From assembly GCA_016936155.1 (NCBI GenBank), contig JAFGPO010000081.1, positions 5,172 to 69,171 on the forward strand: a DNA stretch of 64,000 nt, read 5' to 3'. Within the stretch, counting starts at the first letter, position 1. Each line of letters begins with the position of its first letter. A program made the translations under genes and the position numbers. This DNA comes from a candidate division WOR-3 bacterium. GTDB taxonomy: Bacteria; Hydrothermota; Tepidihabitantia; SM23-42. The notes below the pieces were generated by a model that saw only the letters and a list, made by a program, of their open reading frames with translations, did no database searches and was not told where the DNA came from. Positions 5,074-42,040 of the stretch are shown here, piece after piece.

Positions 5074-5084
5074 ACAATCACTCC

Positions 5085-6525: not shown

Positions 6526-6536
6526 TGCAATTCTCC

Positions 6537-9500
6537 TTACGATGCGACCGACAACGCGGCAAGTATCTGAGTGTCGCGAAAACCTTTAAGATCGATCGCG
6601 CCCGAGCGACATGATGCAGCGCACGTTCCGCAACCTTTGCAGAGTACTTCGTTGACCACGGCAACATTCTTTTCAGCATCAAGCTCGATCGCTCGGTAAG
6701 CACAGACGGCAACGCACAACCCACATCCACTGCACCGATCAGCACGTACCGAGGCGATCTTACCTTCGGCTTCAAGCATATCCTTGCTTAAAACCGTCAC
6801 TGCGCGAGATGCAGCGGCCTTTGCCTGGGCGATCGTTTCGCGGATGTCTTTGGGATAGTGCGCGAGCCCGCACACGAAAATCCCGTCGGTAGCGAAGTCG
6901 ACAGGGCGTAATTTCACATGCGCCTCAAAGAAGAAACCATCAATACCCAACGGCACCTTGAGTGCCTGGGAAAGTCGCTTGTTGTCACCATTGGGCACCA
7001 CGCCAGTGCTTAAAACCAGAAGGTCGGGGTTGAAATATATTGATCTATCCAGTACTTTTTCCCGACCGGTCACCAACAGACCATTTCCGTTGATCTCGAC
7101 ACGCGGTTTTTCCGCAGCATCATACTGGATGAAAACGATACCTGCTTGCCGTGCTTTTTTGTAAAACAGTTCTTTTAGACCGTATGACCGCACGTCACGG
7201 TAGAAATTGAATATAGCAACATTGGGGATCATCTTTTTAAGGAGTAAGGCGTTTTTGATCGCCATACTGCAGCAGATCCTGCTGCAATACGGATGATTAT
7301 CATCCCGGGAACCGACACAATTGATCATGACCACTTTTTTGACAGCCGGCAATGACGGATCGTTCGATGCGATCTTCTGTTCCAGCTCGCGTTGGGTAAT
7401 GATACGCGGATCCTGCCCATAGCAATATTCCTTGGGAATATGCTCATAGGCTCCCGTTGCCACGACAATGACCCCGTGCTCGATCTCTTGTATTGTTTCA
7501 TCCCCGTTTGACAGCATGGAATCCTCTGCAATATCCTTAGATATACATTGTACGGTCGTCAGGAAATTACCGATATAACCGCTCGTTTTACTTATCTTGC
7601 TTGACATGTAGACGGTAATTTGAGGATGAGTGCTGACGAGGTTTATAATATCTTGGAGTACAGGAGCAGTTTCTTTACCGTCAAGGGTATACTGGATGTA
7701 CCTCAGATTACCTCCAAGTGCTTTTTCTTTCTCAACAAGATGAACATGGTAACCATGATCAGCGATATCAAGGGCGGCGATCATTCCGGATATGCCGCCG
7801 CCAATGACCAAAGCTTGTTTGCTCACACCTAATGGGGTTTTGCTGAGCGGCTCTTGATAGACTACTTTCGCAATGGACATCCTCACGAGATCGATCGCCT
7901 TTGCAGTCGCCTGTTCCGGTTCCTGCTGGTGGACCCAGGAGCACTGGTCGCGGATATTAGCAAAATCGAATAAAAATTGATTGAGTCCGGCCTTGCGCAA
8001 TGTTTCCTGAAAAAGCGGTTCATGGGTTCTCGGTGTGCATGCGGCAACTACGATACGGTTGAGATCGTGTTCATGGATCGCATCGATAATGAGTTTCTGG
8101 GCATCCTGCGAGCACGCGAACATAAGATCCTGACAATGAACAACGTACGGTTCTTTAGCGATCTCCTCGACCACTTTCTTCACGTCCACTGTTGCCGCGA
8201 TATTAATGCCACAGTGGCACACGAAAACACCGACATTCGGCCGATCGCCCTCGTTGATATCTCGCATCGGTGGATATTCGACAACAATCTTATTGCTCTC
8301 GAAATCCTTCAACAGGGCCCCAGCTGAAGATGCGGCACCGCTAGCTTCAATAACAGATTCCGGGATATCCTTGGGCCCGGATATCGTACCGCATACGAAG
8401 ATCCCAGGTCGCGATGTACCGACAGGTTTGAAATCACTGGTAACGACAAATCCAAAATCGTTGATCGCAATGCCGAGGGTATCGCACAACCGATGCAGCA
8501 CAGGGGTAGAGACCAGACCAACGGAAAGGATCAGCAGATCGAATCTATCCTTGATTGTTCTCCCGTTGATCGCGTACTGTACGATCGGATCATCGTTCAC
8601 TGGATCTACGTCGACAGTTGATACGCGTGCACGTACAAAACGGGTATTATGTTCTTGCTCGGCCCGATCGATGAACGCGTCGAAGTTCTTACCACAAGCC
8701 CTGATATCCATGCTGAAAACAGTAATGGCAACATCAGGCATATGCTCGGTGATAATGATCGCATCCTTTGCTGCCTGCATACAACAGATCGCAGAACAAT
8801 ATTCATTACCGCTCCGTTCATCGCGTGAACCAACACACTGGATAAAAGCGACACGCCTTGGTTCTCGTCGATCGGACGGACGGAGTACATGACCCCGGGT
8901 CGGGCCAGAAGCACTTAACATGCGTTCGAATTCCATGCTGGTCACAACGTTCGGACATGTCTTGTAAGCATATTCATCCTGATGAAGTGCATTATACTCT
9001 CCTAAACCGGCTGCAACTATAATGCTGCCCACTTCGAGCATTACTGTCTCCTCTTTTTGATCGAAATCGATAGCTTTCGGTTCGCAGACGCGCTCGCAGT
9101 TACGACACTTGCCCTTATTCAGGTACAAACAGTGTTCTGCGTCAATAAGCGCTACAGCAGGAACAGCCTGCGGAAAAGGAATATGAATGCATTTGGTGTC
9201 CATAAGGCTCATATTATACTGGTCCGGGATCTTTATCGGGCATTTTGTCATACACACGCCGCACCCGGTACACCGGTCCTCATCAACATACCGGGGATAT
9301 TTGCGCACGGCTACCTTAAAATAAGGAGCCTCTCCTGAAACCTGTTCAACCTCGGCGTTGGTAATAATCGTTATATACGGATGGTTACCCGCTTCCACAA
9401 GTTTGGGAGACAGGATACACAGCGAACAGTCATTTGTCGGGAATGTCTTGTCGAGCTGGGCCATGCGCCCCCCGATGCTCGGTGATCGTTCAACCAGAAA

Positions 9501-9626
9501 TACTTCAATACCAGAATCGGCCAGGTCAAGAGCAGCCTGAACACCAGCGATACCTCCGCCTATCACCATAACTTTCTTGTGAACCTGTTTAGCGCTCATG
9601 GATGTGCTCCTATCGACCTTTGTCAT
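6537..9626 (-). CDS. hdrA: tandem HdrA-like flavo-iron-sulfur protein (two HdrA units in one chain, uninterrupted)
   Basis: 1029 aa. Unit 1: [72 protein letters not shown]. Unit 2: VFVCHCGINI N-domain, LVIGGGISGMIAALDIA, INCVGSRDDNHPYCSRICC. C-terminal CSGCGLCVAVC and CKGCGTCAASC. Confidence 0.9.
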   Translation of the reverse strand: MTKVDRSTSMSAKQVHKKVMVIGGGIAGVQAALDLADSGIEVFLVERSPSIGGRMAQLDKTFPTNDCSLCILSPKLVEAGNHPYITIITNAEVEQVSGEAPYFKVAVRKYPRYVDEDRCTGCGVCMTKCPIKIPDQYNMSLMDTKCIHIPFPQAVPAVALIDAEHCLYLNKGKCRNCERVCEPKAIDFDQKEETVMLEVGSIIVAAGLGEYNALHQDEYAYKTCPNVVTSMEFERMLSASGPTRGHVLRPSDRREPRRVAFIQCVGSRDERSGNEYCSAICCMQAAKDAIIITEHMPDVAITVFSMDIRACGKNFDAFIDRAEQEHNTRFVRARVSTVDVDPVNDDPIVQYAINGRTIKDRFDLLILSVGLVSTPVLHRLCDTLGIAINDFGFVVTSDFKPVGTSRPGIFVCGTISGPKDIPESVIEASGAASSAGALLKDFESNKIVVEYPPMRDINEGDRPNVGVFVCHCGINIAATVDVKKVVEEIAKEPYVVHCQDLMFACSQDAQKLIIDAIHEHDLNRIVVAACTPRTHEPLFQETLRKAGLNQFLFDFANIRDQCSWVHQQEPEQATAKAIDLVRMSIAKVVYQEPLSKTPLGVSKQALVIGGGISGMIAALDIADHGYHVHLVEKEKALGGNLRYIQYTLDGKETAPVLQDIINLVSTHPQITVYMSSKISKTSGYIGNFLTTVQCISKDIAEDSMLSNGDETIQEIEHGVIVVATGAYEHIPKEYCYGQDPRIITQRELEQKIASNDPSLPAVKKVVMINCVGSRDDNHPYCSRICCSMAIKNALLLKKMIPNVAIFNFYRDVRSYGLKELFYKKARQAGIVFIQYDAAEKPRVEINGNGLLVTGREKVLDRSIYFNPDLLVLSTGVVPNGDNKRLSQALKVPLGIDGFFFEAHVKLRPVDFATDGIFVCGLAHYPKDIRETIAQAKAAASRAVTVLSKDMLEAEGKIASVRADRCSGCGLCVAVCAYRAIELDAEKNVAVVNEVLCKGCGTCAASCRSGAIDLKGFRDTQILAALSVAS

Positions 9627-9642
9627 TGTTCGTACCTACCCA

Positions 9643-10110
9643 TCAACCTTTAGAAGATTGAGATTCGTGTGCTGCTGTAAGATCGTATTTGATGAGATCG
9701 TGACGCAGGATCTGAAGTCGTTTGTCGATCTCCTGAATGCGCTCGGCAATATCCGGTCGGGCGTAATTCTCCTTAATCGCCAGATATCGCAGGACGCGCA
9801 TGAGATCGGGAAAGTTTACATTCTGAGGGCAGTGCGCATAGCAGCGGTAACATACAAGGCAGTACCAGATCGCCGGTGATTGTAGCACCTCATCCCGCAA
9901 GCCGAAAAGGATCTCCCGTATGATACGACGCGGGTTGTATTCTTCGTCGATCTCACTGATCGGACAACCAGCAGTGCATGTTCCGCACGCAAAGCACTTC
10001 CGCAGGTTCTCGCCACCGGGATAGGACATGATCTCTGCGGCAAAGCCAAGATCGACATCGTCCATGTTAATTGCCGGTTTTTGCTCGGTCATAAAGATGC
10101 TCCTTTTCAT
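9643..10110 (-). CDS. hdrC: HdrC-like 4Fe-4S dicluster protein
   Basis: 155 aa. CFACGTCTAGCPI and CLVCYRCYAHCPQ. Paralog of 28263..28760. Alternative ATG starts at 10092 and 10065; the latter lies 1 nt after the MvhD stop. Confidence 0.8.
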   Translation of the reverse strand: MKRSIFMTEQKPAINMDDVDLGFAAEIMSYPGGENLRKCFACGTCTAGCPISEIDEEYNPRRIIREILFGLRDEVLQSPAIWYCLVCYRCYAHCPQNVNFPDLMRVLRYLAIKENYARPDIAERIQEIDKRLQILRHDLIKYDLTAAHESQSSKG

Positions 10111-10513
10111 GGTTATTGAACGGACCTAATTGTCTGATATGCTCAGTAAATTCATTGATAACCTGCTGGAACTTGTTGCCTTCCCCGGCAGATACCCATT
10201 CCAGTTTCAAGCGGTTTTCATTGATGCCGAATTCCCGGAGCATGATCTTGAGTAGGTGAAACCTTCTCAGGGTCTTGTAGTTCCCGGAGATATAGTGGCA
10301 ATCCCCGGGATGACAGCCAGTTATTAAAACACCATCTGCTCCCTGTGTAAATGCGGTCAGTATAAATTCTGGATCGATGCGCCCCGAGCACATGGTCCGG
10401 ATCACCCTGAAATATGGTGCCATTTGCAGCCGCGACACACCTGCCAGGTCAGCACCGGCATATGAACACCAATTACAACAGAATACGATTATGTTAGGAT
10501 CAAAAGTTTCCAC
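10067..10513 (-). CDS. mvhD: MvhD family protein
   Basis: 148 aa. FCCNWCSYAGADLAGVSR...MCSGRIDP...ITGCHPGDCHY. GTG start with GGAG 5 nt upstream. Long nucleotide runs are identical to 22488..22898. Confidence 0.9.
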   Translation of the reverse strand: METFDPNIIVFCCNWCSYAGADLAGVSRLQMAPYFRVIRTMCSGRIDPEFILTAFTQGADGVLITGCHPGDCHYISGNYKTLRRFHLLKIMLREFGINENRLKLEWVSAGEGNKFQQVINEFTEHIRQLGPFNNHEKEHLYDRAKTGN

Positions 10514-10546
10514 TACTACTCCTTGTTATCGCACCACCTGGCATGT

Positions 10547-13500
10547 TCACCACCTCACCGCGTCTACCATTGCCATGATCTGCTGTTTGGTAAATCCCCA
10601 TTGCTCAATAGCCCCGGACGGACAGGATGCAGCGCATGTTCCACAGCCTTTGCACAGAGCTTCATTAATATGGGAATGCCTCTTTCCATTGTCATCGACC
10701 TTCATCTCGATCGCTTTATACGGACATAAACTGGTGCACATGCCGCACCCAGCGCATAGTTCTTCATTGACCTCAGAAACTGTAGCCTCAGCATAGTAGG
10801 TATCCTGCGCCAGTATCGTCGATGCACGCGCAGCTGCCGCCTGCGCCTGGCAAATGGTCTCGGTAATAAGCTTCGGACTATGCGCGAGGCCAGCAACAAA
10901 AATCCCTTCGGTCGCGAAGTCCACTGGCCGCAGCTTCACATGTGCTTCGAGGAAGTAACCGTCCTTGTTCAAAGGCACCTTGAGCATCCTTGCAAGCACT
11001 TCGTTGTCCTCATTGGGAATAATGCCGGAAGAGAGCACAACAACGTCGGGGTGGACAACAACATCCTGTGCGAGCACTGGTTCGTGGAAGCGAACCTCGA
11101 GTGATGATCCGTTCGAAACAACCGCGGGTTCTTTGTCCTCGTCATAGCGAACGAACATAATACTTGCCCGACGTGCGCGTGTGTAGTAATCCTCCTTGAA
11201 ACCGTACATCCGGACATCGCGGTACAGGATGAATATTTGTACATATGGGTTTACATCGCGAAGCTTCAATGCGTTCTTTACGGCCTGGGCGCAGCACCGC
11301 CGGCTGCAGTACGGATGTACGCCATTCCGTGATCCCACGCACTGGATCATTACAACGGATTTGAGCGCATCAATACCAGGCACTGATGCACTGGAAGAAC
11401 CGTTCCCGTTGCCGTGCTGTACCAAATACTGTTCAAGCTGCTGCTGCGTCACCACCCGCGGCTCTTTACCATAACCGTACTCCTGGGGGACATACTCCGA
11501 ACCACCCGTGGCAACGATAACGACACCATGCTGGTATGTGTGCGGTACCCGGTCTGCATCCCGTATCACGGTCTCATAGTTGCCCACGAATCCGTTGATC
11601 GACTCGATCCGGGCACCGGTATACACGGTGATACGGAGATGATCATGGACCTTTTTTATCTGCTCCGCAAGGAAATCATCCATATGATCGTTCTCAAGGG
11701 TGTAGTGTATGTTGCGCAGATGACCACCCAGTTCTTGTTTTTTTTCTACAAGACATACATTATATCCCTGCTCTGCCAGGGAATACGCGGCCACCATGCC
11801 TGCAATGCCGCCCCCGATGACGAGCGCGGACTGGTTAACAGCAATGGCAACACGTTTCAGTGGACGCAGAAAACGCGCTTTTGCCGCTGCCATCGACACA
11901 AGGTCCTTGGCTTTTTCAGTGGCTGCAACGCGATCATGCATGTGGATCCAAGAGCACTGATCGCGTATGTTCGCCATCTCAAACAAGTACGGATTCAAAC
12001 CAGCCTCGCGCATAGTCTCACGGAACAATGGCTCATGGGTTCGCGGCGTGCACGATGCGACCACGATACGGTTCAACCGGTGGGTGGCGATCATGTTCGT
12101 GATCCTGTGCTGGCTGTCCTGTGAACACGTATAAAGATTGGATTCTGCATAGACAACGTCTGGTTCGTTCCTGACATGCTCGACCACTGCCGCGACATCA
12201 ACGTAGCCCCCGATATTAATACCGCAGTGGCACACAAAAACGCCGATACGCGGCATTGCATTGCGGACATTAATCTCTGGTGGATACTGCTTTACGGAAA
12301 TGAGTGCATGGCGCTCACTAGCCAGCAGCTGCATGGCCTTCGCGGCAGCAGCTGATGATTGCGTCACAGTCTCTGGTATATCCTTTGGTTCAGTACAGGG
12401 CCCGCAGACAAAAACTCCTGCCCGGGTAGATTGCACGGGATCGTTCTGGGCGGTCGTGCAGAACCCGTATTTATTCAGAGAAATACCCGCTTTTCGAGCG
12501 AAATCCGCACTGTCTCTGGATGGATGCAGGCCGCACGACAACACCACCATGTCAAAAACCTCTTGGTGCGCGCTGCCATCCGGTAAACTATACCGTATGT
12601 ATAAACTCTTGCTGGGATTGACTTCGTCGATTGATGATGGTCGGCACCGGATGTATCTGATGCCACTCTGCAGTGCCTTTTCATAGTATTCATCAAAACC
12701 TTTGCCGAACGCCCTCAGATCCATAAAGAAGATCGTGCATTGAAGATCCGGCGAATGTTCGCGGGCGATCAGCGCCTGTTTGGTAGCATGCATACAGCAT
12801 ACCGACGAACAATACGGATGGTCGTCGTCCCGTGAACCGACACACTGGATAAAGGCGATTTGGCGGGGTTCGCTCAGATCACCGGGTCGCTGTACGTGTC
12901 CCTGGTACGGACCGGAAGCGGACAGGATCCGCTCGAATTCGATAGACATGACCACGTTTTTGAATCGCCCATTCCCGAATTCCCGAAATAAGGTACCATT
13001 GCCCACCTCGAACCCGGAGGCAATGATCACGGCACCGACCTCGAGCTTCACGGTCTCGTCATGCTGGTCAAAATCGATCGCCTGTGCCTCACAAAGGTCC
13101 TGGCAGATCCTGCACTTATCGGTAATGAAGTGCATACAATGGTCCTTATCGATGATCGCGGAATTCGGCACTGCCTGGGGAAATGGGATACGAATCGCAG
13201 GACGGGTCCGTAGACGCTCATCAAACTCATCGAGCAATGGCCTGGGCTTGCGGATGCCGAGTTTTTCAAGTCGTTTTGATGAGGTCGGGCATACCTGGAA
13301 GCATGCTCCGCAAGCCATACACCGGGGCGACTCGACATCAAAGGGCGGAGCGATCAGTCGTTTATCACCGCGCGATGCAAACCCGATGACATTACGCCCC
13401 ATGCGTTCACTGCACATACGAACACAAAGGCCGCACAGGATGCAATCCTCGTTCCGACGCACATACGGCGTATCAACAACGCCCATGGTCCGCGCCATCT

Positions 13501-13918
13501 CCTGGATCACTGGTGCATCAGGGCAACGGGCAAGCAGCAGCTGCATCATAGTCTTTCGTATTGTCTGGATCTCTTCGGTATTGGTCCTTACGACCAATCC
13601 TGCCTGAGCAGGATATACACACGAACTTTGAATCTTCTTTCGGTTATCCTGGGTTATCTCGACAACGCATAAACGACATGCCCCGTATGAGCTGAGCGCC
13701 TTGTGGTAACACAATGTAGGGATTTCAATATTCAGCATCCGAGCAGCTTCAAGTACGGTAGTCCCTGTATCAACGCTTACAGTGTGATCATCGATCGTCA
13801 AGGTCACGCGATCTTCAACCTGCGGCGGTGCTTTACCGGCTGTTAACCGTTTTTTTCTCGAGACTTGTCTTTTTTTCTTCATAGTGCTCTTCTTTTTCCT
13901 CTTCTTCATTCTCTTCAT
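10547..13918 (-). CDS. NuoG-N-terminal-like [2Fe-2S]/[4Fe-4S] domain fused to a tandem HdrA whose first unit lacks its dinucleotide-binding N-fragment
   Basis: The track ORF extends to 14140. The ATG at 13918 forms an ATGA overlap with the NuoF-like stop, so it was chosen as start. NuoG/Fer2-like region: VTLTIDDHTVSV...LCYH...GACRLCVVEI, CILCGLCVRMC, CMACGACFQVCP. The chain then resumes mid-HdrA at IRIPFPQAVP, CRICQDLCEA, FIQCVGSRDDDHPYCSSVCC. A full second unit follows (VFVCHCGINI, LVIGGGIAGMVAA, IQCVGSRNGVHPYCSRRCC). C-terminal CAGCGMCTSLCP and CKGCGTCAASCP. Confidence 0.85.
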   Translation of the reverse strand: MKRMKKRKKKSTMKKKRQVSRKKRLTAGKAPPQVEDRVTLTIDDHTVSVDTGTTVLEAARMLNIEIPTLCYHKALSSYGACRLCVVEITQDNRKKIQSSCVYPAQAGLVVRTNTEEIQTIRKTMMQLLLARCPDAPVIQEMARTMGVVDTPYVRRNEDCILCGLCVRMCSERMGRNVIGFASRGDKRLIAPPFDVESPRCMACGACFQVCPTSSKRLEKLGIRKPRPLLDEFDERLRTRPAIRIPFPQAVPNSAIIDKDHCMHFITDKCRICQDLCEAQAIDFDQHDETVKLEVGAVIIASGFEVGNGTLFREFGNGRFKNVVMSIEFERILSASGPYQGHVQRPGDLSEPRQIAFIQCVGSRDDDHPYCSSVCCMHATKQALIAREHSPDLQCTIFFMDLRAFGKGFDEYYEKALQSGIRYIRCRPSSIDEVNPSKSLYIRYSLPDGSAHQEVFDMVVLSCGLHPSRDSADFARKAGISLNKYGFCTTAQNDPVQSTRAGVFVCGPCTEPKDIPETVTQSSAAAAKAMQLLASERHALISVKQYPPEINVRNAMPRIGVFVCHCGINIGGYVDVAAVVEHVRNEPDVVYAESNLYTCSQDSQHRITNMIATHRLNRIVVASCTPRTHEPLFRETMREAGLNPYLFEMANIRDQCSWIHMHDRVAATEKAKDLVSMAAAKARFLRPLKRVAIAVNQSALVIGGGIAGMVAAYSLAEQGYNVCLVEKKQELGGHLRNIHYTLENDHMDDFLAEQIKKVHDHLRITVYTGARIESINGFVGNYETVIRDADRVPHTYQHGVVIVATGGSEYVPQEYGYGKEPRVVTQQQLEQYLVQHGNGNGSSSASVPGIDALKSVVMIQCVGSRNGVHPYCSRRCCAQAVKNALKLRDVNPYVQIFILYRDVRMYGFKEDYYTRARRASIMFVRYDEDKEPAVVSNGSSLEVRFHEPVLAQDVVVHPDVVVLSSGIIPNEDNEVLARMLKVPLNKDGYFLEAHVKLRPVDFATEGIFVAGLAHSPKLITETICQAQAAAARASTILAQDTYYAEATVSEVNEELCAGCGMCTSLCPYKAIEMKVDDNGKRHSHINEALCKGCGTCAASCPSGAIEQWGFTKQQIMAMVDAVRW

Positions 13919-15771
13919 CGTATTGCTGGTGACGTCGCAGATATCGCGTTGAATTTCGGTGGACAGATTGTCATACAGATCCCACATTTGATGCACTTGG
14001 ACTGGTCGATACGATAGAATTGTTTGGGTTTCCCGATGATCGCTCCGGCCGGGCAGGCTTTTGCACAAACTGTACAACCACGGCATCGTTCCCGATCGAT
14101 AACATAGGATATCAGATGCTTGCAGCTCAATGCAGGACAACGTTTTTCCTTGATGTGAGCATCATATTCATCACGGAAGTAGCGCAACGTGGACAGGACT
14201 GGGTTTGCCGCAGTCTGGCCAAGACCACAGAGCGAGGCACGCTGCACGACACTACCGAGTTGCTCGAGCAATTCAATATCCCCCTTACGGCCATCACCTT
14301 CGGTTATCCGCTTTACAATCTCATACATCTGGATCGTCCCCTCCCTGCATGATGTACATTTGCCGCACGATTCATCCTTTAAAAAGGCGAGGAAATATTT
14401 CGCAACATCGACCATGCAGGTATCCTCGTCCATGACAACCATTCCGCCGGAACCCATCATCGAACCGGCTTCCGTAAGTTTTTCGAAATCGACATTCAGA
14501 TCGAGCAGCTCTGCAGGAATACACCCCCCTGATGGACCCCCGGTTTGCACTGCTTTGAATCTTTTATTGTCTGGAATGCCGCCGCCTATGTCGTAGATGA
14601 TCTCGCGCAACCGGATACCCATGGGTACTTCCACGAGTCCCGTATTGTTGACCTTACCGACCAGAGAAAATATCTTCGTGCCTTTGCTGTACCTGGTCCC
14701 CAGTTTTGCATACCAGGCAGCGCCCTTATTGATTATCAAGGGTACGTTCGCCCATGTTTCCACATTATTATTATTAGTTGGTCTACCCCATAGACCTTTC
14801 TCAGTTGGAAACGGGGGCCGCATACGCGGTTCAGGCGGTCGTTCCCCTTCGATCGAAGCGATAAGCGCTGTCTCTTCTCCGCACACAAAAGCACCGGCAC
14901 CCTCGCATATTTTTATAGTAAAATCGAAGCCTGATGCACAGATGTTCTTGCCTAGAATATGAGCTTGCTCAGCTTGTTCAATAGCAATCCTTAAATTTTT
15001 AATTGCAAGGGGATATTCAGTCCGTACATAAACGATCCCATAGTTCGCCCCTATTGCGTACGCGCCGATCACCATCCCCTCAAGTACGCTGTGCGGATTC
15101 CCTTCCAGCACACTCCGGTCCATGTATGCACCAGGATCCCCCTCATCCGCGTTGCACGTAACGTACTTAGGAACATCAGGAGACTGACGGCAGAGTTCCC
15201 ACTTGCGCCCAGTAGGGAAACCTGCGCCGCCCCGTCCGCGCAGCCCTGAGCGCGTTATCTCATCAATAACCTCCTGCGGAGACATCCCGGATAGTACTTT
15301 TTTTATTGCTTTGTACCCACCAAGGTCTATGTAATCAGCTATGGCAGTCGGATCGATGCGTCCATTATTCCCGAGAATAAGCCGGTGCTGTTTTTTATAG
15401 AAACAAACGTCCTCAACGTGAACGGTTTTCTCTTTAGTGGTTGGATCGCAATACAAGAGCCGGTCCACGATCCTGTCGTTCAAACAGGCATCCAGTATCT
15501 CATCCACGTCCTCAGGATTCACTCGCTGGTAGAATATCCGTTCAGGATAAATGACCACGATCGGACCACGCTCACAGAATCCGTGGCACCCGGTCACCTT
15601 GATATCAATGCTGGCCCCTATACCCCGATCTTTGACAGCATCAAAAAACGCCTGACTTACTTTTTCACAATTGTATGCGTGACATCCTGTGCCACCGCAT
15701 ACGCTAATGCAGTACTTTTTAGTCTTCTTTGAGACGGTGGTGGCTGCGCCTTCAGACTTTCCTTTTCCCAT
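13915..15771 (-). CDS. NuoF/HydB-like NADH-binding FMN iron-sulfur flavoprotein
   Basis: 618 aa. N-terminal thioredoxin-like [2Fe-2S] motifs (CGGTGCH...VTGCHGFCERGP). FMN/NADH region GRGGAGFPTGRKWE. N3-type cluster ESCGKCTSCREG. C-terminal 2x[4Fe-4S] (CRGCTVCAKACP, CIKCGICMTICP). Confidence 0.9.
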   Translation of the reverse strand: MGKGKSEGAATTVSKKTKKYCISVCGGTGCHAYNCEKVSQAFFDAVKDRGIGASIDIKVTGCHGFCERGPIVVIYPERIFYQRVNPEDVDEILDACLNDRIVDRLLYCDPTTKEKTVHVEDVCFYKKQHRLILGNNGRIDPTAIADYIDLGGYKAIKKVLSGMSPQEVIDEITRSGLRGRGGAGFPTGRKWELCRQSPDVPKYVTCNADEGDPGAYMDRSVLEGNPHSVLEGMVIGAYAIGANYGIVYVRTEYPLAIKNLRIAIEQAEQAHILGKNICASGFDFTIKICEGAGAFVCGEETALIASIEGERPPEPRMRPPFPTEKGLWGRPTNNNNVETWANVPLIINKGAAWYAKLGTRYSKGTKIFSLVGKVNNTGLVEVPMGIRLREIIYDIGGGIPDNKRFKAVQTGGPSGGCIPAELLDLNVDFEKLTEAGSMMGSGGMVVMDEDTCMVDVAKYFLAFLKDESCGKCTSCREGTIQMYEIVKRITEGDGRKGDIELLEQLGSVVQRASLCGLGQTAANPVLSTLRYFRDEYDAHIKEKRCPALSCKHLISYVIDRERCRGCTVCAKACPAGAIIGKPKQFYRIDQSKCIKCGICMTICPPKFNAISATSPAIR

Positions 15772-15773
15772 GT

Positions 15774-16670
15774 CTACTCTTTCTCTTTCTGATAATGATC
15801 GATAACACGCTGTACTTTCTTCGGCGCCATATGCCCGTAATACGTGTCATCGACAAGGACCACCGGTGCCAGCGCACATGCGCCCACACAATTCACTGTC
15901 TCCAGCGTAAACAACATATCGTTGGTATTCTGACCCGCGGGAATGCCCAGTATCCGCTCGAATTCCTCGAGTACCCTCCTTGCTCCCCGTACATGACAGG
16001 CAGTGCCCAGACAAACCCGGATCACATGCACCCCCCGCTTTTGCAGACTCAAAGCCCGGTAAAAGGTGGCGACACTGAAGATAAGATTCAACGGGATATG
16101 CAGGTGTTCTGAAACATACTTCAACAGGTCCGCGGGAAGATAGTTGTACTTACGGTTTATCGCCTGTAATACAGGCATGAGGACGCCCTGTTGTCCTTCA
16201 TACTCATTGATGATTTTTTGTATCGTTTCGCGGTCTGAGTCACTCAGCACGACTCGCTCTTGGACAGTATCTTCATAGGGGATCTGCTGCACAGGACAGT
16301 TCTGCATGCATAATCCGCACCCCGTGCACTTATCCACATCAACGTACCGGGGCTTTTTATGGATCGTTACAAGGAAATTGCCGCTTTCGCCTGCGATCTC
16401 TTCAAGGTCAGAATTGGTGATCACCTCGATATTGGGATGACGGGCAACGCTCACCAATTTCGGCGCAAGTATGCACATCGAGCAGTCATTTGTCGGAAAG
16501 GTTTTATCAAGCTGCGCCATCACACCGCCGATACTTGGTTTTTTGTCGAGAAGATACACTTTGAATCCGGACTCAGCAAGGTCCAGAGCCGCCTGGATGC
16601 CCCCAATGCCACCGCCCACCACAAGGGCGGCCCCGGTCACCTTTTGTTTCTTCATAACCGCAGTTTTCAT
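15774..16670 (-). CDS. HdrA N-terminal FAD-binding fragment fused to a NuoE-type thioredoxin-like [2Fe-2S] domain
   Basis: 298 aa. [38 protein letters not shown] and [12 protein letters not shown]. This region closely resembles the N-terminus of 22913..27367. NuoE motifs follow: [14 protein letters not shown]...[15 protein letters not shown] overlap at 16667-16670. Confidence 0.85.
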
Positions 16671-17059
16671 GCGAAATATTTGTTTACGCGCTCAAGCAAC
16701 AATCCAGCGTCGATCGGCTTGTCAATGAACTCCTCGATCGGCAACCAGGAAGCATCACCTGATGCGCCTGCAAAATTCATGGGGTATTTCTGGTCGACCG
16801 CAGTGAGCATGATAATCGGTATATCCTTGGTATCTGGTGAACGTTTTAGCTCGCGGCAGAGGTCGAAGCCGGAATGATCAGTCTCCATCATGACATCACA
16901 TATGATCAGATCCGGTTGAAATATCTTGAGTGCTGCCAGACACTCCTTCGCTGAAAGACACGTTTCCACTTTATAGCCACTCTTCTCAAGAACGATCCTG
17001 ACCGCGGCGAGAAGATCGGCATCATCATCAACAACCATGATATTTTTATGGACAGTCAT
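16667..17059 (-). CDS. single-domain response regulator (CheY-like receiver)
   Basis: [16 protein letters not shown]...[10 protein letters not shown]...[11 protein letters not shown] at 17059 with GGAG 7 nt upstream. The track ORF start at 17086 overlaps the upstream gene. Confidence 0.85.
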
Positions 17060-17075
17060 TGTACTCTCCTTATTC

Positions 17076-18836
17076 TTACGGCACACAGCGCGGCAGTTTC
17101 ATGGTAATAACAGCGAACTTCTTATATTCCTGTTTTTTGTGACTTCTGCCACCTGGGGCATCGCGGTATAACACATACTCGCCATCGATAATGTACCCGG
17201 CACCAGCCTGGACCGATCCCCCGTGCTGTTCGACAATCTTCTTTACAATATGCAAACCAAGCCCGGTGCCGCTTACCCCAACCTTATCGAACCTGATGAA
17301 TCGCTCGAATACGCTGCTCAAGGCATCCGGTTCGATACCGATCCCTTCGTTTGAAATCTGTATTTCCACACCATCGTGATTTTTCTTCACCTGACAGGTG
17401 ATCGTAGAACCTTCGGTACCATATTTGATCGCATTGTTCACTAGATTCCCGATCGCGATCTTAAGCAGATCAGGATCCCCGCATACGCGACAAGCATCAT
17501 CAATCGTGGTTGTTATACTCATTCTGCGCTTGTTCAATACTGCTTGAAATTCACTCAAACATGGTTCAATAATATCTTTTTTCAATGAAATGACCCGACG
17601 AGTGCATTTAAGATAACCGTATTCGGCATTATACGATACGATGTAATTCCTGATCATATCATGTAAAAATTTTATGCTGCACAGAGAGCTCAACAACATT
17701 GAATGACGGGTCTCTGGACCGATCTTGCTCGCTAACTGGGAATCCGCAAGCGCACTTATATTCAACATTACCGGGCCAAGCGTCCCTTTACATTCATGTA
17801 CGAAAAAATTCATTATCCAGTTCAAATGTCTTGTCGTATCATATAATGCAGTGCTATCGCGGAGCACTTCCACAACATATGCAGCCGTGCCGTTGCTCCG
17901 CTTTACCGGTAACGCGATCGCATCATAATAGCGCTTATGGCCATGTGTATCATGATCCACATAGAGAGATCTCGCTGTTTTAAGTGTATTGAATGCCTGA
18001 CGCACCGGGCAGGTTGATTCCGGACACGGGATTCGCGACTTCCGATTCACCGAATAACAGTATTGACCAGGTATGTGATCCCCCGCACATGCTGTCAGAC
18101 GTTCATAGGCATAGTTGCACGTCTGTATCCTCAGTTTCCGGTTGATCACGGCAATCCCATCGTCCAGGACGTCAAATGCGACAGCACGAAGGTTGCGCTG
18201 ATCCGCGATCGCGGTTATTCTTAACCATTGCTCGAGCTGCTTTTTCACGTAATACCACTGCCTGCTGATTTTCACGGCCGGGATCCTGCCCTGCCGCGAG
18301 AGTTGCTGCAAACGGCGAGCAGAAATCTTCAAGAATGCGCTCGCTTGTCGCGCATCAACCAGTTCTTCTGTTCCCATGGTTGTGGCTGTTGGGACCCGGG
18401 CGTGATCAAGGTTTTTCGATCCTTGTGTGTGCCGGTGTTCAAGGGCGTTCTCTATGACCAGGCGTATTTCCTCTATATCCAGTGGTTTCATCATGAAGTA
18501 AAATATACCTTGTTCCCGGACCCGGACTGCAACCTCGATCGAATCATCCCCCGAAATAATAATAATAGGAAGCAAACGATCGATATCTTTGATGGCTGGG
18601 ATCAATTCAAACCCACGGTTATGTTTATTGACATCCATGATAAGCACATCGACGCTGCCTGCCTGTATGCGCTCGAAAAGGATGTGAGAATCTTGAATGT
18701 GTTCGACCTGGTATCCTAATATGCTCAGATACTGCGATACCACCCGTGCATTGCTACGATCCTGGTCCATAATAGCAATACAGGCTTTTCCCACTGATGG
18801 ATTGTTTATGGTTCTTGATTGTGCTATCCGTGCCAT
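17076..18836 (-). CDS. multidomain sensor: receiver - excisionase/MerR-type HTH - Cys-rich PAS-like region - histidine kinase
   Basis: 586 aa. REC (CIAIMDQD...DVLIMDV...PIIIISG). HTH-like ASAFLKISARRLQQLSRQGRIPAVKISRQWYYVKKQLEQWL. Cys-rich block QTCNYAYERLTACAGDHIPGQYCYSVNRKSRIPCPESTCPV. Kinase core (FVHECKGTL, NEGIGI, GTGLGLHIVKK). Confidence 0.85.
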   Translation of the reverse strand: MARIAQSRTINNPSVGKACIAIMDQDRSNARVVSQYLSILGYQVEHIQDSHILFERIQAGSVDVLIMDVNKHNRGFELIPAIKDIDRLLPIIIISGDDSIEVAVRVREQGIFYFMMKPLDIEEIRLVIENALEHRHTQGSKNLDHARVPTATTMGTEELVDARQASAFLKISARRLQQLSRQGRIPAVKISRQWYYVKKQLEQWLRITAIADQRNLRAVAFDVLDDGIAVINRKLRIQTCNYAYERLTACAGDHIPGQYCYSVNRKSRIPCPESTCPVRQAFNTLKTARSLYVDHDTHGHKRYYDAIALPVKRSNGTAAYVVEVLRDSTALYDTTRHLNWIMNFFVHECKGTLGPVMLNISALADSQLASKIGPETRHSMLLSSLCSIKFLHDMIRNYIVSYNAEYGYLKCTRRVISLKKDIIEPCLSEFQAVLNKRRMSITTTIDDACRVCGDPDLLKIAIGNLVNNAIKYGTEGSTITCQVKKNHDGVEIQISNEGIGIEPDALSSVFERFIRFDKVGVSGTGLGLHIVKKIVEQHGGSVQAGAGYIIDGEYVLYRDAPGGRSHKKQEYKKFAVITMKLPRCVP

Positions 18837-18850
18837 ACATGTTTATGTTA

Positions 18851-18866
18851 TGCAAATACCATGCCA
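18851..18866 (-). promoter_or_regulatory. candidate sigma-54 (-24/-12) promoter
   Basis: The minus strand reads TGGCAT-GGTAT-TTGCA. That matches 10 of 11 positions of the TGGCAC-N5-TTGCA consensus, with correct GG-N10-GC spacing. It lies 14 nt upstream of the ATG at 18836 and directly downstream of a sigma-54 activator gene. Confidence 0.5.
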
Positions 18867-19093
18867 GGTATCGATCGCACAGAATATCATAAAACATCAT
18901 TAATTTCTTTCGAAATTACGGATGTTATTTTATGTTAATTCGTATAGACTGGGAGTGGTGTGTTTAACCTGAATAGTTTTTATATGCATACGAATCCCTT
19001 ATTTACCCATATTTCATGCAGCAAAGCCAGGACATTATGAATAAAAAAACTATGCATGAAGTAAAAACATATGCATATGGGTTTAGTGCATGG

Positions 19094-20482
19094 TTATGCT
19101 GGTTTGATATTGTATTTACGAACCAAGGCCTGAAGATTCTGCCTTTTCATGCCAACGTCCCGGGCCGCCTGGCTGATATTCCAATTGCTTTTTTTGAGTA
19201 CATTGATGACAAAAGCCCGTTCAATATTCTCAACCGCCGCGGTTCTCATCCTTTTTTTCATTTGTTTCAGTGCTTTGCAATTCTGGGGAACTGATATATT
19301 AAAACACACTCGCTTCCCCTGCAGATCAGCGGGGATTTGACTCTTGTCTATTATCGGACCATCACACATGATCACCATGCGCTCCACTATGTGCTCCAAT
19401 TCCCGTATGTTACCCGGCCAATCATAGTCGAATAGTGTGTTCATTGCCTCCCGTGATACTCCCTGGATCTCCTTGTTCCGTTTTGCATTGTATTTTTTAA
19501 AAAAATGTTGAACGAGCAAAGGAATGTCATCGCGCCGTTCACGGAGCGACGGCAGGCGGATGGGAACGATCTTGAGACGATAATACAAATCTTCCCGGAA
19601 TTCACCGTTCTTTATCATTCGGGCCAGATCTTTGTTCGTTGCTGCAATAAGACGTATATCGACCTTGCTGTTTTTGATACCACCGATAGGTCGGAATTCC
19701 TTTTCCTGCAGTACACGAAGCAGCTTTGCCTGGATCCCCGAACTGAGATCCCCCACCTCGTCAAGAAAGAACGTCCCGCCATCCGCGACTTCCAACAGAC
19801 CACGTTTTGTGACGATCGCACCGGTGAACGATCCTTTTACATGCCCAAACAACTCGCTTTCGAGTAATGTTTCAGGTAACGCCCCACAATCCACGGCGAT
19901 GAATTTCTTTTCCTTGCGCAGTGAATGATAATGGATCGCCTGGGCGATCAATTCCTTTCCCGTACCGCTTTCACCCTGAATTAGTATCGTGGAATCGGTC
20001 GGCGCCACCTTCTCGATAAGCGCGAACACATTCTGCATCTGCTTGCTCTCTCCGATGATGTTGTCGAACTCAATGCGCTCGGTGATCTCTCTTTTTAACC
20101 AAAGGTTTTCCTCCACAAGGCAGGCGCGTGCCAGGACATTTTCAATCCGTAATTGTATTTCATCGGGACGGAACGGTTTTACAATATAATCAGCTGCTCC
20201 TTGTTTCATTGCCTGGACAGCGTTCTCTACTGTCCCATAACCCGTCATGATGACTACGGGCAGTGATGCATTCATTTTGTGAAGGTGAGTCATGACTTCC
20301 AGACCATCCATTTCAGGCATTTTTAGGTCCACTAACGCGCAGTTATATGGTACTTCCTGAGCGCGTTCCAGGGCTGATGATCCGTCTTCAGCAGTATCTA
20401 CGCTATAACCAAGACTATTCAGTAGTTCCTGCAACGAGGTTCTCAGAGAATCATCATCATCAACGACCAGGATCGTGATCAT
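19094..20482 (-). CDS. sigma-54-dependent response regulator (NtrC family: REC - AAA+ - Fis-type HTH)
   Basis: MITILVVDDDDSL. Walker A GESGTGKELIAQAIH. GSFTGA (GAFTGA-type loop). FREDLYYRL. C-terminal HTH NISQAARDVGMKRQNLQALVRKY. The ATG at 20482 is preferred over the TTG at 20518. Confidence 0.9.
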   Translation of the reverse strand: MITILVVDDDDSLRTSLQELLNSLGYSVDTAEDGSSALERAQEVPYNCALVDLKMPEMDGLEVMTHLHKMNASLPVVIMTGYGTVENAVQAMKQGAADYIVKPFRPDEIQLRIENVLARACLVEENLWLKREITERIEFDNIIGESKQMQNVFALIEKVAPTDSTILIQGESGTGKELIAQAIHYHSLRKEKKFIAVDCGALPETLLESELFGHVKGSFTGAIVTKRGLLEVADGGTFFLDEVGDLSSGIQAKLLRVLQEKEFRPIGGIKNSKVDIRLIAATNKDLARMIKNGEFREDLYYRLKIVPIRLPSLRERRDDIPLLVQHFFKKYNAKRNKEIQGVSREAMNTLFDYDWPGNIRELEHIVERMVIMCDGPIIDKSQIPADLQGKRVCFNISVPQNCKALKQMKKRMRTAAVENIERAFVINVLKKSNWNISQAARDVGMKRQNLQALVRKYNIKPA

Positions 20483-20492
20483 AAGCGAATTG

Positions 20493-22418
20493 TCACTGCT
20501 TGTTGCCAATCGGCACAACTGGTAACCGGATGGTAAATGTCGTACCCTGATTCAGTTCGCTCGTTACTTCGATCGTCCCATCGTGATCCTTGATAATACG
20601 ATAGCTAATCGCAAGACCCAAACCCACGCCGTGCGATGTATCCTTGGTCGTAAAGAACGGCTCAAAGACCTTGGACAGGTGTTTCGGATCAATACCTGAG
20701 CCTGTATCCGTGAATTGTATTTCGATATACTTACCATCATGGCTTATGCGTGACGTGATCTGAAGCACGCCTTGCCCACCCATAGATTCGGCTGCATTGA
20801 TTATAATATTCATGAATACTTGTTGGATCTGCATCGGATCGATCTTTATCATGGGCAGATGATCATCAAAATTGCGTTCGATATCAATATTATGAAATAG
20901 CGCCTGATTCTTGACCAACGACAGTGTCGTGGAAATAATATCATTCACCAAGGAATCCTGGATCTCGGGTTTTTTCTGGCGTGAGAATTCGAGCAGACCG
21001 TGTACGATCTTCTTGCACCGCGCAGCTTCATGGCTGATCCTCTCGACGTTCTTACGTGTCTTGCCATCCCCTGGCCTGCCTTTAAGCAATAGATCGCAAT
21101 ACAGAATGATCCCAGTCAAAGGATTATTAATTTCATGCGCCACCCCGGCGGCAAGCTGTCCGATCATTGCTAGTCGTTCGGCTTCCGCGATCTTTTTCTG
21201 GGCGAATTCTTTGATCTTGGCGTCGCGCTCCTTAATCGACTGATTCATAAAATTAAACACATCCACAAGATCGCCGATCTCATCGTTAGATTCGATCTGC
21301 ACGTTGTCAGAGAATTGACCGTCGGCAATATGTTTCGCAACTTTAGCCAGTTTGCTAACCGGCTTGATGATGCTGTTCGCGAGAAAGAAGGATACGGCAA
21401 ACGCAAAGGCGATCCCGAGGATCGTGATCGCCAGAAAGGTAAATACGACATTATTCTGCAAATCAGTAAACTTCTGCTCCAGGATACCCACATACAGGAT
21501 TCCGATGATCTTGCCGTCAATGTTTTTGATCGGTTCGTATGCTGTAATATACCAGTCATTAACGACAAAAGCCCGGGCGATCCAGGGAAGGCCCTGGACA
21601 ATGACCCGGTCATAAACTTCCTGAGAAACCCGGGTACCGATAGCTCGGTTTCCATCCTTTCGATGCACATTCGTGGAGATCCTTAAGTCACCCTGAAAGA
21701 TCGTCGCCGTGCCGATATCCTTACCATGATACTGCTCTCCGTGATATACAAGATCCTTGATCCGATCAACGATCTCATTGCTCTGGTTCAGTAATCGACC
21801 ACCGTATAGAATACCCAATAGTTTCCCATTATCGCTGAAAACCGGTGCCGCTGCTATAATCACCATGCCTGAGGTTTCAACGGTCTCATCCCGGGGACGC
21901 GCTTTTGGTGTTGGAATGATCTCGATGCGCGCTTGTGCTGCCAGCTTAGGACATTCTCTGAAGAGTTTTTCTTCGGGAATGATTTGGGTGAAAACAACTG
22001 GGATTTTGTCCCTTATGGCCTGCGACACGATGTCGTCGTGGATTGTATCACCGTATACGGTTGGATTGCATGTCCGGACGAGAACGATCCCCTGTGCATC
22101 AACAAGAGTCAAGATATCCAAGCGCTCGTTTTCTTTAATCCTCTCAAGTTCCTTCTGCAACAGGACAAGATTATTATTGACCAGCGCGTTTTTCACGAAA
22201 AAACGCACAGTAGTTAATCGGACTACATCCTTGATATTAGCACTTACCTCATTGTACACCTCACGGGCCGAGTTTATGTCGAGACGTACTTTATCCTGTG
22301 CCTGTTTGATGATCCCGTCGCCGATGAGACGCACACCGATGATCATACTGACCACACCACTGATCAGAACGACCAATACCAGGCTTACGATGAACTTTGT
22401 TCGCAACCGGACTTTCAT
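20493..22418 (-). CDS. sensor histidine kinase (TM - Cache-like - TM - HAMP - HisKA - HATPase)
   Basis: 641 aa. GTATIFQGDLRISTNV, RAIGTRVSQEVYDRV, GVAHEINNPLT, DTGSGI, GVGLGLAISYRI. Paralog of 22..2088. Confidence 0.9.
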   Translation of the reverse strand: MKVRLRTKFIVSLVLVVLISGVVSMIIGVRLIGDGIIKQAQDKVRLDINSAREVYNEVSANIKDVVRLTTVRFFVKNALVNNNLVLLQKELERIKENERLDILTLVDAQGIVLVRTCNPTVYGDTIHDDIVSQAIRDKIPVVFTQIIPEEKLFRECPKLAAQARIEIIPTPKARPRDETVETSGMVIIAAAPVFSDNGKLLGILYGGRLLNQSNEIVDRIKDLVYHGEQYHGKDIGTATIFQGDLRISTNVHRKDGNRAIGTRVSQEVYDRVIVQGLPWIARAFVVNDWYITAYEPIKNIDGKIIGILYVGILEQKFTDLQNNVVFTFLAITILGIAFAFAVSFFLANSIIKPVSKLAKVAKHIADGQFSDNVQIESNDEIGDLVDVFNFMNQSIKERDAKIKEFAQKKIAEAERLAMIGQLAAGVAHEINNPLTGIILYCDLLLKGRPGDGKTRKNVERISHEAARCKKIVHGLLEFSRQKKPEIQDSLVNDIISTTLSLVKNQALFHNIDIERNFDDHLPMIKIDPMQIQQVFMNIIINAAESMGGQGVLQITSRISHDGKYIEIQFTDTGSGIDPKHLSKVFEPFFTTKDTSHGVGLGLAISYRIIKDHDGTIEVTSELNQGTTFTIRLPVVPIGNKQ

Positions 22419-22898: not shown

Positions 22899-22912
22899 AA
22901 ACACTCCTTACC

Positions 22913-27367: not shown

Positions 27368-27369
27368 GA

Positions 27370-34884: not shown

Positions 34885-34893
34885 CGTTACCTC

Positions 34894-36396: not shown

Positions 36397-36406
36397 TGCT
36401 GCCTCC

Positions 36407-36745: not shown

Positions 36746-36755
36746 AGCACTCTCC

Positions 36756-37720: not shown

Positions 37721-37732
37721 ATACTCCTCTCC

Positions 37733-42032: not shown

Positions 42033-42040
42033 GGTTCCTC

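Follow-up and report, generated by a model that had tools for sequence, protein, structure and literature searches.

A predicted BamE-like HdrA dimer divided by a HydBC-type cassette in a candidate division WOR-3 bacterium

The Bfu family was defined by Schut et al. in 2022 (PMC9304861). That paper lists Bam-Bfu as a type-2 member, the only one given with an HdrA partner in the main-text passages searched, and proposes that BamGHI confurcates NADH and ferredoxin and feeds a second bifurcating module, the HdrA-like BamE. Until the structure of class II benzoyl-CoA reductase (BCRII) appeared in 2026, there was no known case of an enzyme in which two unlike bifurcation modules act one after the other. 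In that preprint (Appel, Kumar et al.; 10.64898/2026.04.10.717634), serial confurcation and bifurcation were shown by cryo-electron microscopy and assays. BamGH forms a HydBC-type module, BamI leads to the C-terminal ferredoxin clusters of BamE, and BamF (MvhD-like) relays to the FAD of the first TrxR domain (TrxR1), with Lys280 and the pair Cys59-Cys62. From there a high-potential branch runs via BamD to electron transfer flavoprotein, and a low-potential branch runs via the inserted ferredoxin domain to BamBC. BamE is described as a differentiated fused dimer whose second FAD is non-bifurcating, and the coexistence of two bifurcation modules in one complex is presented as unreported before. 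Here we describe a three-gene unit (A, B and C) in a 64,000-nucleotide stretch of DNA (the window) from a candidate division WOR-3 bacterium (GCA_016936155.1, contig JAFGPO010000081.1, positions 5,172 to 69,171), in which modules of these two types are predicted to be joined covalently.

All coordinates are those of the window, and features lie on its minus strand unless stated otherwise. Gene A (15774-16670; 298 amino acids, aa) encodes the N-terminal part of a first HdrA unit (unit 1) followed by a NuoE/HydC/BamG-type [2Fe-2S] domain, gene B (13915-15771; 618 aa) a HydB/BfuB/BamH-type subunit, and gene C (10547-13918; 1123 aa from ATG) a BfuA/BamI-like domain, the remainder of HdrA unit 1 and a second HdrA unit (unit 2). 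A preliminary description of this locus had proposed three translationally coupled genes, and the junctions read directly from the letters bear this out. The stop TGA of B and the start ATG of C share the ATGA at 13915-13918, while the stop TAG of A is followed by AC, a 2-nt gap (15772-15773), and then by the ATG of B. The ATG of A itself overlaps the stop of a response-regulator gene 5' of it (ATGA at 16667-16670). The Pfam and Protein Data Bank (PDB) matches of the three proteins are far beyond chance, and no NCBIfam model reaches its cut-off for the spliced unit.

Protein A joins two sets of domains. Pfam finds a FAD-type Rossmann motif (residues 16-53), a Fer4 motif (109-128) and a NuoE-type 2Fe-2S_thioredx domain (PF01257; 150-294, E = 7e-47), and PDB sequences give HdrA for residues 8-134 (8rvv_A, E = 1.2e-47) and HydC for residues 147-294 (8a6t_C, E = 8.6e-45). 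The HdrA-NuoE fusion first reported for this gene is confirmed. Residues 1-134 (16269-16670) comprise an FAD-binding beta-alpha-beta fold with GGGIGG at 19-24, a Cys-pair motif (Cys63/Cys66) that is the apparent counterpart of BamE Cys59-Cys62, and the first motif of the inserted ferredoxin domain, CxxCxxCxxxCP at 115-126. Residues 147-298 (15777-16232) form a thioredoxin-like [2Fe-2S] domain with Cys220, 225, 261 and 265.

In protein C, Pfam finds Fer2_4 (36-114), 2x[4Fe-4S] motifs (157-212), Pyr_redox_2/FAD motifs from residue 699 and a C-terminal Fer4 pair; it returns no GltD or Fer4_20 match in A, B or C. The HdrA-like sequence of C runs to its C-terminus (match to 5odc_A, E = 1.9e-163). 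Residues 224-545 (12284-13249) hold the second half of the inserted ferredoxin domain (C261, 269, 272 and 276) and the C-terminal part of TrxR1, with [4Fe-4S] ligands C359, 370, 374 and 375 and Lys380. HdrA unit 2 occupies residues 556-1123 (10550-12253) and consists of an N-terminal [4Fe-4S] domain (C563, 565, 598 and 623), a second TrxR domain (TrxR2; GGGIAG 702-707, C860, 871, 875 and 876, K881) and a C-terminal 2x[4Fe-4S] ferredoxin domain (1055-1099). Aligned to residues 4-235 and 468-647 of M. thermolithotrophicus HdrA, unit 2 no longer carries the Cys pair and contains no inserted ferredoxin domain.

The relation between A and C becomes clear when both are mapped onto this HdrA (5odc_A). 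A 9-132 aligns with HdrA 140-262, the start of the TrxR domain and the first motif of the inserted ferredoxin domain, and C 229-479 with HdrA 261-510, the remainder of both. C 556-786 corresponds to HdrA 4-235 (N-terminal cluster domain and start of the second TrxR) and C 939-1119 to HdrA 468-647 (TrxR end and C-terminal ferredoxin domain). On this mapping A and C together contain two TrxR domains but a single N-terminal cluster domain, a single inserted ferredoxin domain and a single C-terminal ferredoxin domain. TrxR1 is cut directly after the first CxxCxxCxxxCP motif, and the NuoE-like domain, the whole of B and the BfuA-like domain are all encoded between its two halves, the inserted ferredoxin domain being divided between A 115-126 and C 261-276. 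The TrxR1 FAD pocket takes GGGIGG and Cys63/Cys66 from A, and the site takes C359, C370, C374, C375 and K380 from C, the equivalents of HdrA C386, C399, C403, C404 and K409.

The window also encodes an uninterrupted paralog (6537-9626; 1029 aa). By BLASTP its residues 6-132 are 57% identical to A 2-128, and its residues 111-1023 are 47% identical to C 192-1116, collinear with the A match. This collinearity indicates that A and C together make up a BamE-like fused HdrA dimer, the HdrA fragment of A and the first HdrA of C being, as judged from their sequences, two halves of one HdrA unit. A and C would then be a differentiated dimer whose inserted ferredoxin domain has received a HydC/HydB/short-HydA cassette by splicing, and the candidate bifurcating FAD pocket of TrxR1 would be shared by two polypeptides. 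Insertion of a hydC-hydB-short-hydA cassette into a bamE-like gene, between the two Cys motifs of the inserted ferredoxin domain, could have given the present gene order. The preliminary description had read C as a NuoG(N)-HdrA-HdrA fusion. The NuoG-like domain does run into HdrA sequence, but C does not hold two complete HdrA units, since the FAD-binding N-terminal part of unit 1 is on A.

Protein B carries an N-terminal 2Fe-2S_thioredx domain (15-96), Complex1_51K (E = 4e-44), SLBB, NADH_4Fe-4S (E = 7e-34) and two C-terminal Fer4 motifs (556-610), all by Pfam. Its best solved relative is HydB of NiFe-HydABCSL (7t2r_B, E = 2.7e-240), whereas Thermus Nqo1 reaches only 2.9e-111; HydB of two FeFe-HydABC enzymes and the tungsten aldehyde oxidoreductase Bfu (Wor-Bfu, 9mqx_B) are further top relatives. 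Residue alignment to 7t2r_B, 7q4v_B and 8a6t_B shows a complete FMN/NADH site (GRGGAGFPTG 179-188, NADEGDPG 207-214). The [4Fe-4S] ligands C469, 472, 475 and 515 and the cysteines of the N-terminal [2Fe-2S] cluster are also there. The C-terminal 2x[4Fe-4S] domain has CxxCxxCxxxCP at 563-574 and 593-604, and the linker leading to it contains a conserved KRCPALSC (KRCPAxxC) whose Cys545/Cys550 may bind zinc, by analogy with the Zn-stabilised linker of BamH. The alignment agrees with the earlier assignment of a NuoF homolog with extra N-terminal [2Fe-2S] and C-terminal 2x[4Fe-4S] domains of the bifurcating HydB/Bfu type, and the FMN- and NADH-binding residues on which that assignment depends are all kept. 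B is thus predicted to be a bifurcating-type HydB rather than a plain NuoF. A plain complex-I N-module was ruled out, given these HydB-specific domains and the fact that no NuoF-linked membrane arm is encoded. The two candidate bifurcating flavin sites proposed at the outset can therefore be placed: the FMN in B, and the FAD in the TrxR1 divided over A and C.

The N-terminal domain of C (residues 36-214; 13277-13813) has one [2Fe-2S] site (C70, 81, 84 and 100) and two [4Fe-4S] sites (159-169 and 200-210), without a His-ligated cluster. Residues 36-213 give an end-to-end alignment with BfuA of PDB 9MQX (9mqx_A, 247 aa, E = 2.3e-39), an entry cited in the Wor-Bfu paper (PMC12318220), and by its sequence the domain is a type-2 BfuA, like BamI or the BfuA of Wor-Bfu. 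It is preceded by a strongly basic, low-complexity stretch (residues 1-35, MKRMKKRKKKSTMKKKRQVSRKKRLTAGK...; 13814-13918). The true start of C is uncertain because three in-frame ATGs fall inside 13 codons; a longer version of the open reading frame (ORF; 10547-14140) begins at a TTG within B, which is not likely to be the true start.

The features expected of both families are therefore present in one unit: the BfuB domains, the BfuC [2Fe-2S] domain and a BfuA that links to a third-substrate module, and, across A and C, the FAD motif, [4Fe-4S] ligands, Lys, Cys pair and three cluster domains of HdrA. An MvhD-type adaptor stands alongside. This MvhD/BamF-type [2Fe-2S] protein (10067-10513; 148 aa; PF02662, E = 1.2e-55) follows C, with a Shine-Dalgarno-like AAGGAG before its gene and no helix-turn-helix (HTH) match in Pfam. 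Next comes an HdrC-like 2x[4Fe-4S] protein (9643-10110; 155 aa; Pfam Fer4_8/Fer4_17), which matches the NCBIfam models for HdrC (E = 3.9e-25) and for the N-terminal part of QmoC (E = 9.9e-22). It has no predicted transmembrane segment and is thus soluble. An HdrC-like partner is therefore encoded, while the operon holds no CCG protein, the HdrB at 27370-28266 belonging to a separate HdrL cluster.

NuoE-HdrA fusions were searched for elsewhere and proved recurrent, with the same split position. The related loci (L001 and so on) come from contigs and a genome scan, the best among the matches listed being 56% identical. The order A-B-C, usually followed by MvhD, was found in at least about 28 loci, which belong to more than 10 phyla of Bacteria and Archaea. 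Bacterial carriers are Aminicenantes, Eubacteriales, Latescibacterota, Spirochaetia, Desulfobacteraceae, Desulfatiglandales, Acidobacteriota, Cloacimonadota, Myxococcales, Chitinispirillaceae and Planctomycetota; among Archaea they are Altiarchaeales, Thermoplasmata and one unclassified archaeon. The best 120 clusters of A-type fusions (90% identity) are all 285-307 aa long with both domain sets in each, and a query spanning the junction of A recovers at least 17 representatives at the 50% identity level. In 13 diverse A homologs the GxGxxG, the Cys-pair motif, the ferredoxin motif and the four NuoE cysteines are all invariant. The same holds, in 24 split-type C proteins, for Lys380 and every predicted ligand checked, the exceptions being Cys655 and Lys881. 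Domain content, the split, ligand conservation and synteny are thus direct observations.

A split flavin-binding domain is unusual, and could be put down to misassembly or to a decaying HdrA gene that left a remnant on A. The same split in about 28 independent assemblies, with invariant motifs, refutes such an artefact, as do full-length A-type proteins in more than 120 clusters and the junction-spanning representatives; we give this explanation practically no credence.

Some relatives depart from the window copy in ways worth recording. An in-frame stop falls exactly at the Cys63/Cys66 position in the A-type genes of L017, L025 and L066 and in the BamE-like genes of L037, L049, L064 and L080, consistent with selenocysteine replacing one Cys of the redox-active pair in some lineages; the window copy of A has Cys, not selenocysteine, at the pair position. 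The B-type genes of six loci (L001, L002, L006, L008, L014 and L015) encode proteins of about 1020-1065 aa in which a GltD/NfnB-like NADPH-FAD domain, about 40% identical to the insert of an HdrL encoded in the window, replaces the C-terminal ferredoxin domain. In L002, accessory genes with DRTGG, CBS, PHP and HATPase domains lie between B and C.

Partner genes vary around this constant core. An MvhD-like gene follows C in most of the related loci listed, and an HdrC-like gene like that at 9643-10110 also follows MvhD in L004, L026 and L027. HdrC and HdrB lie directly upstream of A in eight loci among those listed, an HdrD-like fusion takes this upstream position in L023, and a QmoC-like gene is found directly upstream of A in six (L001, L006, L016, L018, L021 and L022). 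The QmoC-like proteins are 390-420 aa long, with an HdrC-like 2x[4Fe-4S] N-terminus and 4-6 predicted transmembrane helices, and those of L018 and L022 have a weak NarI-type match. These proteins suggest that Aminicenantes, Eubacteriales and Acidobacteriota have forms of the complex that are anchored in the membrane and linked to quinone.

We constructed neighbour-joining trees of the NuoF core and of HdrA. In the NuoF-core tree, which has two HydB outgroups only, the Bam clade is monophyletic (bootstrap 91/100) and nested among ABC-type sequences (100/100), and the sister group of BamH is not settled (11/100 for the window sequence with L004). The nesting of the Bam clade hints at a recent common origin of the BCRII input module and the spliced family. 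The HdrA tree is star-like with poorly supported deep nodes; BamE-like proteins form their own clade with C outside it, and the tree gives no answer on a single origin of the split. The Lys next to the CC motif fails as a marker of the bifurcating FAD, since unit 2 and BamE-like proteins keep it too.

We put at about 0.6 the probability that A, B, C and MvhD form a soluble core coupling two bifurcation modules in series, with confurcation of NADH and ferredoxin feeding HdrA-type bifurcation. The electron path, its direction and the physiological acceptors are drawn here by homology to BCRII. The first module, of HydBC/Bfu type, would be built from B and two further domains, the NuoE one of A and the N-terminal one of C; NADH would be oxidised at the FMN of B together with reduced ferredoxin at the C-terminal clusters of B, or the reverse would take place. 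The second would be the BamE-like fused HdrA dimer, with TrxR1 and its candidate bifurcating FAD assembled from A and C. Within C, electrons would pass from the BfuA-like clusters to the C-terminal ferredoxin domain; they would go on to the [2Fe-2S] cluster of MvhD and then to the TrxR1 FAD, where they would be bifurcated. One electron would enter a high-potential branch for which the HdrC-like protein is the candidate start. In relatives this branch would be formed by HdrBC, an HdrD-like protein or a QmoC-like membrane protein, partners which imply a disulfide or quinone as acceptor. The other electron would cross the split inserted ferredoxin domain, on a low-potential branch that ends at ferredoxin or another acceptor.

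Several points weigh against this serial arrangement. The unit is known here from its genes. The operon lacks an HdrB/CCG protein, the nearest being that of the other cluster, and the HdrA tree leaves the split forms not clearly monophyletic. The cassette sits in the domain that serves as low-potential output in BamE and HdrA, and the Bfu clusters might feed that branch instead. Replacement of the ferredoxin C-terminus of B by a GltD-like NADPH domain in some relatives means that ferredoxin confurcation would not be family-wide. A reaction in which ferredoxin served as co-donor and also as low-potential acceptor would achieve nothing on balance; in that case an acceptor below ferredoxin or another stoichiometry would be needed.

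Alternatively, the unit may bifurcate only once, the NuoEF-like module serving as NADH input only, as FlxABCD does in Flx-Hdr, and the HdrA FAD being the sole bifurcating site. NADH would then reduce ferredoxin and a disulfide or quinone, or the reverse reaction (confurcation) would operate in syntrophic or sulfate-reducing metabolism. Such a net reaction is thermodynamically sensible and fits the proposed roles of Flx-Hdr and HdrL. It also accords with the HdrBC or QmoC-like partner modules in relatives, with the variants carrying GltD instead of the B ferredoxin domain, and with the finding that NADH alone reduced 68% of BamGHI (10.64898/2026.04.10.717634). However, B keeps every feature that separates HydB from NuoF (N-terminal [2Fe-2S], Cys linker, C-terminal 2x[4Fe-4S]), these are retained across phyla, and B is far closer to HydB than to Nqo1 by the E values given above. 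We regard a single bifurcation as rather unlikely.

The genomic surroundings bring in a further possibility. From 18836 down to 22 every gene is on the minus strand, and neighbouring genes are separated or overlap by no more than 44 nt. Tightly packed directly 3' of the unit is a block (3203-9626) whose parts were identified by Pfam: the uninterrupted double HdrA is followed by a second MvhD (6049-6525), by a pair of Flx-like Fe-S proteins (5085-6083 and 4039-5073) and by a FlxA-like NAD(P)H/FAD protein (3203-4042). This block is a possible partner module. A, B, C, MvhD and the HdrC-like protein might join it in a larger NAD(P)H/ferredoxin balancing supercomplex, transhydrogenase-like and with no thiol or quinone substrate. 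The close packing from 18836 down to 3203 and the repetition of the array in L004 fit this idea. Flx-like genes directly follow A-B-C-MvhD in L009, L019 and L066, and are adjacent in L004, L008 and L014, while the NuoF-GltD fusions of other relatives add a second pyridine-nucleotide site. Set against this, A-B-C-MvhD occurs without Flx or a second HdrA in L001, L010, L011, L015-L018, L021 and L022, and HdrBC or QmoC-like partners are the commoner neighbours. We think such a supercomplex decidedly improbable, and retain the serial two-module core as our preferred reading.

Two regulator genes, for a response regulator (139 aa) and a response regulator-HTH-PAS-HATPase protein (586 aa), are translationally coupled to A (16667-18836), and L004 has an equal arrangement before A. 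A sigma-54-type -24/-12 match, TGGCATGGTATTTGCA (18851-18866, minus strand), is intergenic, just upstream of the gene for the 586-aa protein and downstream of a sigma-54 activator gene. The window contains five sigma-54-type matches against 1.85 expected, a count reached in 2 of 100 shuffles, which is marginal and makes for weak evidence. Counts from a scan of the window for sigma-70 promoters and terminators were not above those of shuffles. The regulator genes span 16667-22418, so that two-component and sigma-54 regulators are interleaved between HdrA systems.

Upstream of the unit, beyond these regulator genes, lies an HdrC-HdrB-HdrL-MvhD cluster (22488-28760). Its HdrL (22913-27367; 1484 aa) has a GltD-like domain inserted in the inserted ferredoxin domain, about 30 residues downstream of the split site used by A and C in the same domain. 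Of the paralogs it is the one nearest to C (57% identical over 906 residues, versus 47% for the uninterrupted paralog). Three paralogous fused-HdrA-dimer systems thus lie within 26 kb (3203-28760), each with another pyridine-nucleotide module: the GltD-inserted HdrL with HdrBC and MvhD, the NuoEF-spliced unit (9643-16670), and the double HdrA with MvhD and FlxA/B/C-like proteins. Further away, 34399-48155 encodes an Mrp/Mbh-like membrane complex with three Proton_antipo_M proteins and NuoH-, NuoD/NiFe-large- and NuoC-like subunits, adjoined by a molybdopterin-binding protein of 523 aa and by proteins of Fer4_11, FlxA-like and Fer4_22 type. In L004 a part of this antiporter cluster is found a short way upstream of the ABC unit. 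A 911-aa ORF on the plus strand (50252-52987) has no Pfam match at E <= 1e-8.

The locus and its relatives suggest that the pairing of these two modules reaches much further, to sulfate reducers, Acidobacteriota, Spirochaetes, Aminicenantes, Altiarchaeales, Thermoplasmata and others, where they would be hard-wired by gene fusion and attached to interchangeable disulfide-, quinone- or NAD(P)H-linked partners. More tentatively, A-B-C-MvhD may represent a large, phylum-spanning family of stand-alone confurcation-then-bifurcation enzymes whose modules are covalently interlocked around a two-polypeptide FAD pocket, a proposal about which we are more doubtful than confident. If it is true, such enzymes would generate electrons below the potential of ferredoxin, or lift quinol or thiol electrons to NADH and ferredoxin, and the electron-input core of BCRII would be a specialised, un-spliced offshoot of this family. 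As a compact target, the unit lends itself to tests of the coupling between HydBC-type and HdrA-type bifurcation. It is relevant to the way in which anaerobes keep NADH, ferredoxin and quinone or thiol pools in balance, and helps to annotate genes labelled merely "NADH:ubiquinone oxidoreductase subunit E/F/G" or "HdrA".

Among known systems the closest is BCRII (Geobacter metallireducens Bam[(BC)2DEFGHI]2), which likewise combines a HydBC-type NADH/ferredoxin module with a fused HdrA dimer and an MvhD-type adaptor. B corresponds to BamH, the NuoE domain of A to BamG, the N-terminal domain of C to BamI and MvhD to BamF. The Cys pair is on the first TrxR domain only, and the BfuA is of BamI type with one [2Fe-2S] and two [4Fe-4S] clusters, as in BCRII. 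Unlike in BCRII, the counterparts of the G, H and I genes lie inside the E gene, that of BamG behind the first ~134 HdrA residues and that of BamI before the remainder, and the unit is without the BamB/BamC tungsten output. In place of the ~383-aa CCG-type, HdrD-like BamD there is the 155-aa HdrC-like protein without CCG.

Complete bamBCDEFGHI clusters were recovered by chance in the genome scan (L037 and L073, also L049, L051, L064 and L080). L037 and L073 encode an aldehyde oxidoreductase (AOR), BamC, a CCG-containing BamD, a double HdrA interrupted by an apparent selenocysteine and a 236-aa MvhD-like protein with HTH, together with separate NuoE-, NuoF- and short NuoG-like genes that are the unspliced equivalents. 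Identities between bam-cluster counterparts and the unit are 41-45% for BamG and the NuoE part of A, 53-68% for BamH and B, and 39-43% for BamI and C residues 38-214. One might then ask whether the unit is itself the electron-input core of a BCRII variant, as its module content equals BamE+F+G+H+I and BamH-like sequences are close to B. Among the window ORFs scanned, however, there is no AOR-family protein (AFOR_N/AFOR_C), and hence no BamB, and no BamC or CCG-type BamD; the same scan does detect AFOR domains in the true bam loci L037 and L073. The MvhD is short and without an HTH match, whereas the BamF-like protein of L037 (236 aa) has HTH_5/HTH_IclR matches. BamE-like proteins stand in a clade of their own and have Asp at the position of Cys1092 of C, and carriers of the family fall in phyla that are not known to degrade aromatic compounds anaerobically. 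Identity as a bam cluster was rejected for want of BamBC and BamD, and we hold a bam variant to be very improbable. With no AOR among the window ORFs scanned, the separate BamE-like clade and the Asp at the Cys1092 position, the unit is related to the BCRII core without being part of that enzyme.

With the type-2 Bfu enzymes, Wor-Bfu of Acetomicrobium mobile (9MQX) and NiFe-HydABCSL (7T2R), the unit shares the conserved BfuBC cofactor set and a type-2 BfuA (C 36-213). In other Bfu enzymes the third-substrate module is a hydrogenase, formate dehydrogenase, WOR or GltD domain; here it is HdrA, joined covalently to both BfuC and BfuA. HdrL, an HdrA-glutamate-synthase fusion known from Desulfobacterium autotrophicum and Syntrophobacter fumaroxidans, is alike in being a fused HdrA dimer interrupted in its inserted ferredoxin domain by a pyridine-nucleotide module and followed by MvhD. 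It differs in having a single GltD-like domain within one polypeptide, where the unit has a three-part HydCBA-type cassette on separate genes. FlxABCD-HdrABC of Desulfovibrio and MvhAGD-HdrABC of methanogens share the HdrA-type FAD, the MvhD adaptor, an NADH- or H2-linked input and an HdrC-type Fe-S exit. Unlike in these systems, the input is of HydBC/NuoEF type rather than FlxA/PyrK type or [NiFe] hydrogenase, the HdrA is a differentiated fused dimer, and the operon has no HdrB.

The preliminary description had taken the covalent combination of the two proposed bifurcation sites to be undescribed. The pairing of a HydBC-type and an HdrA-type module in one enzyme is already known from BCRII (Schut et al. 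2022; preprint 10.64898/2026.04.10.717634). Transcription units of the form nuoEFG-mvhD(-hdrA) were noted in Desulfotignum phosphitoxidans in 2013 (PMC4046663), and a survey of archaeal fusions lists only HdrA-HdrA(-MvhD). We found no description in the literature of the splice or of its wide occurrence without BamBC, although a mention in Appel et al. 2021 (BBA 1862:148379) or Pereira et al. 2011 is possible. Thus the covalent splice, the missing tungsten output and the breadth of distribution look undescribed, and, compared with the known systems, it is the split FAD site and this breadth that are noteworthy rather than the pairing of the modules as such.

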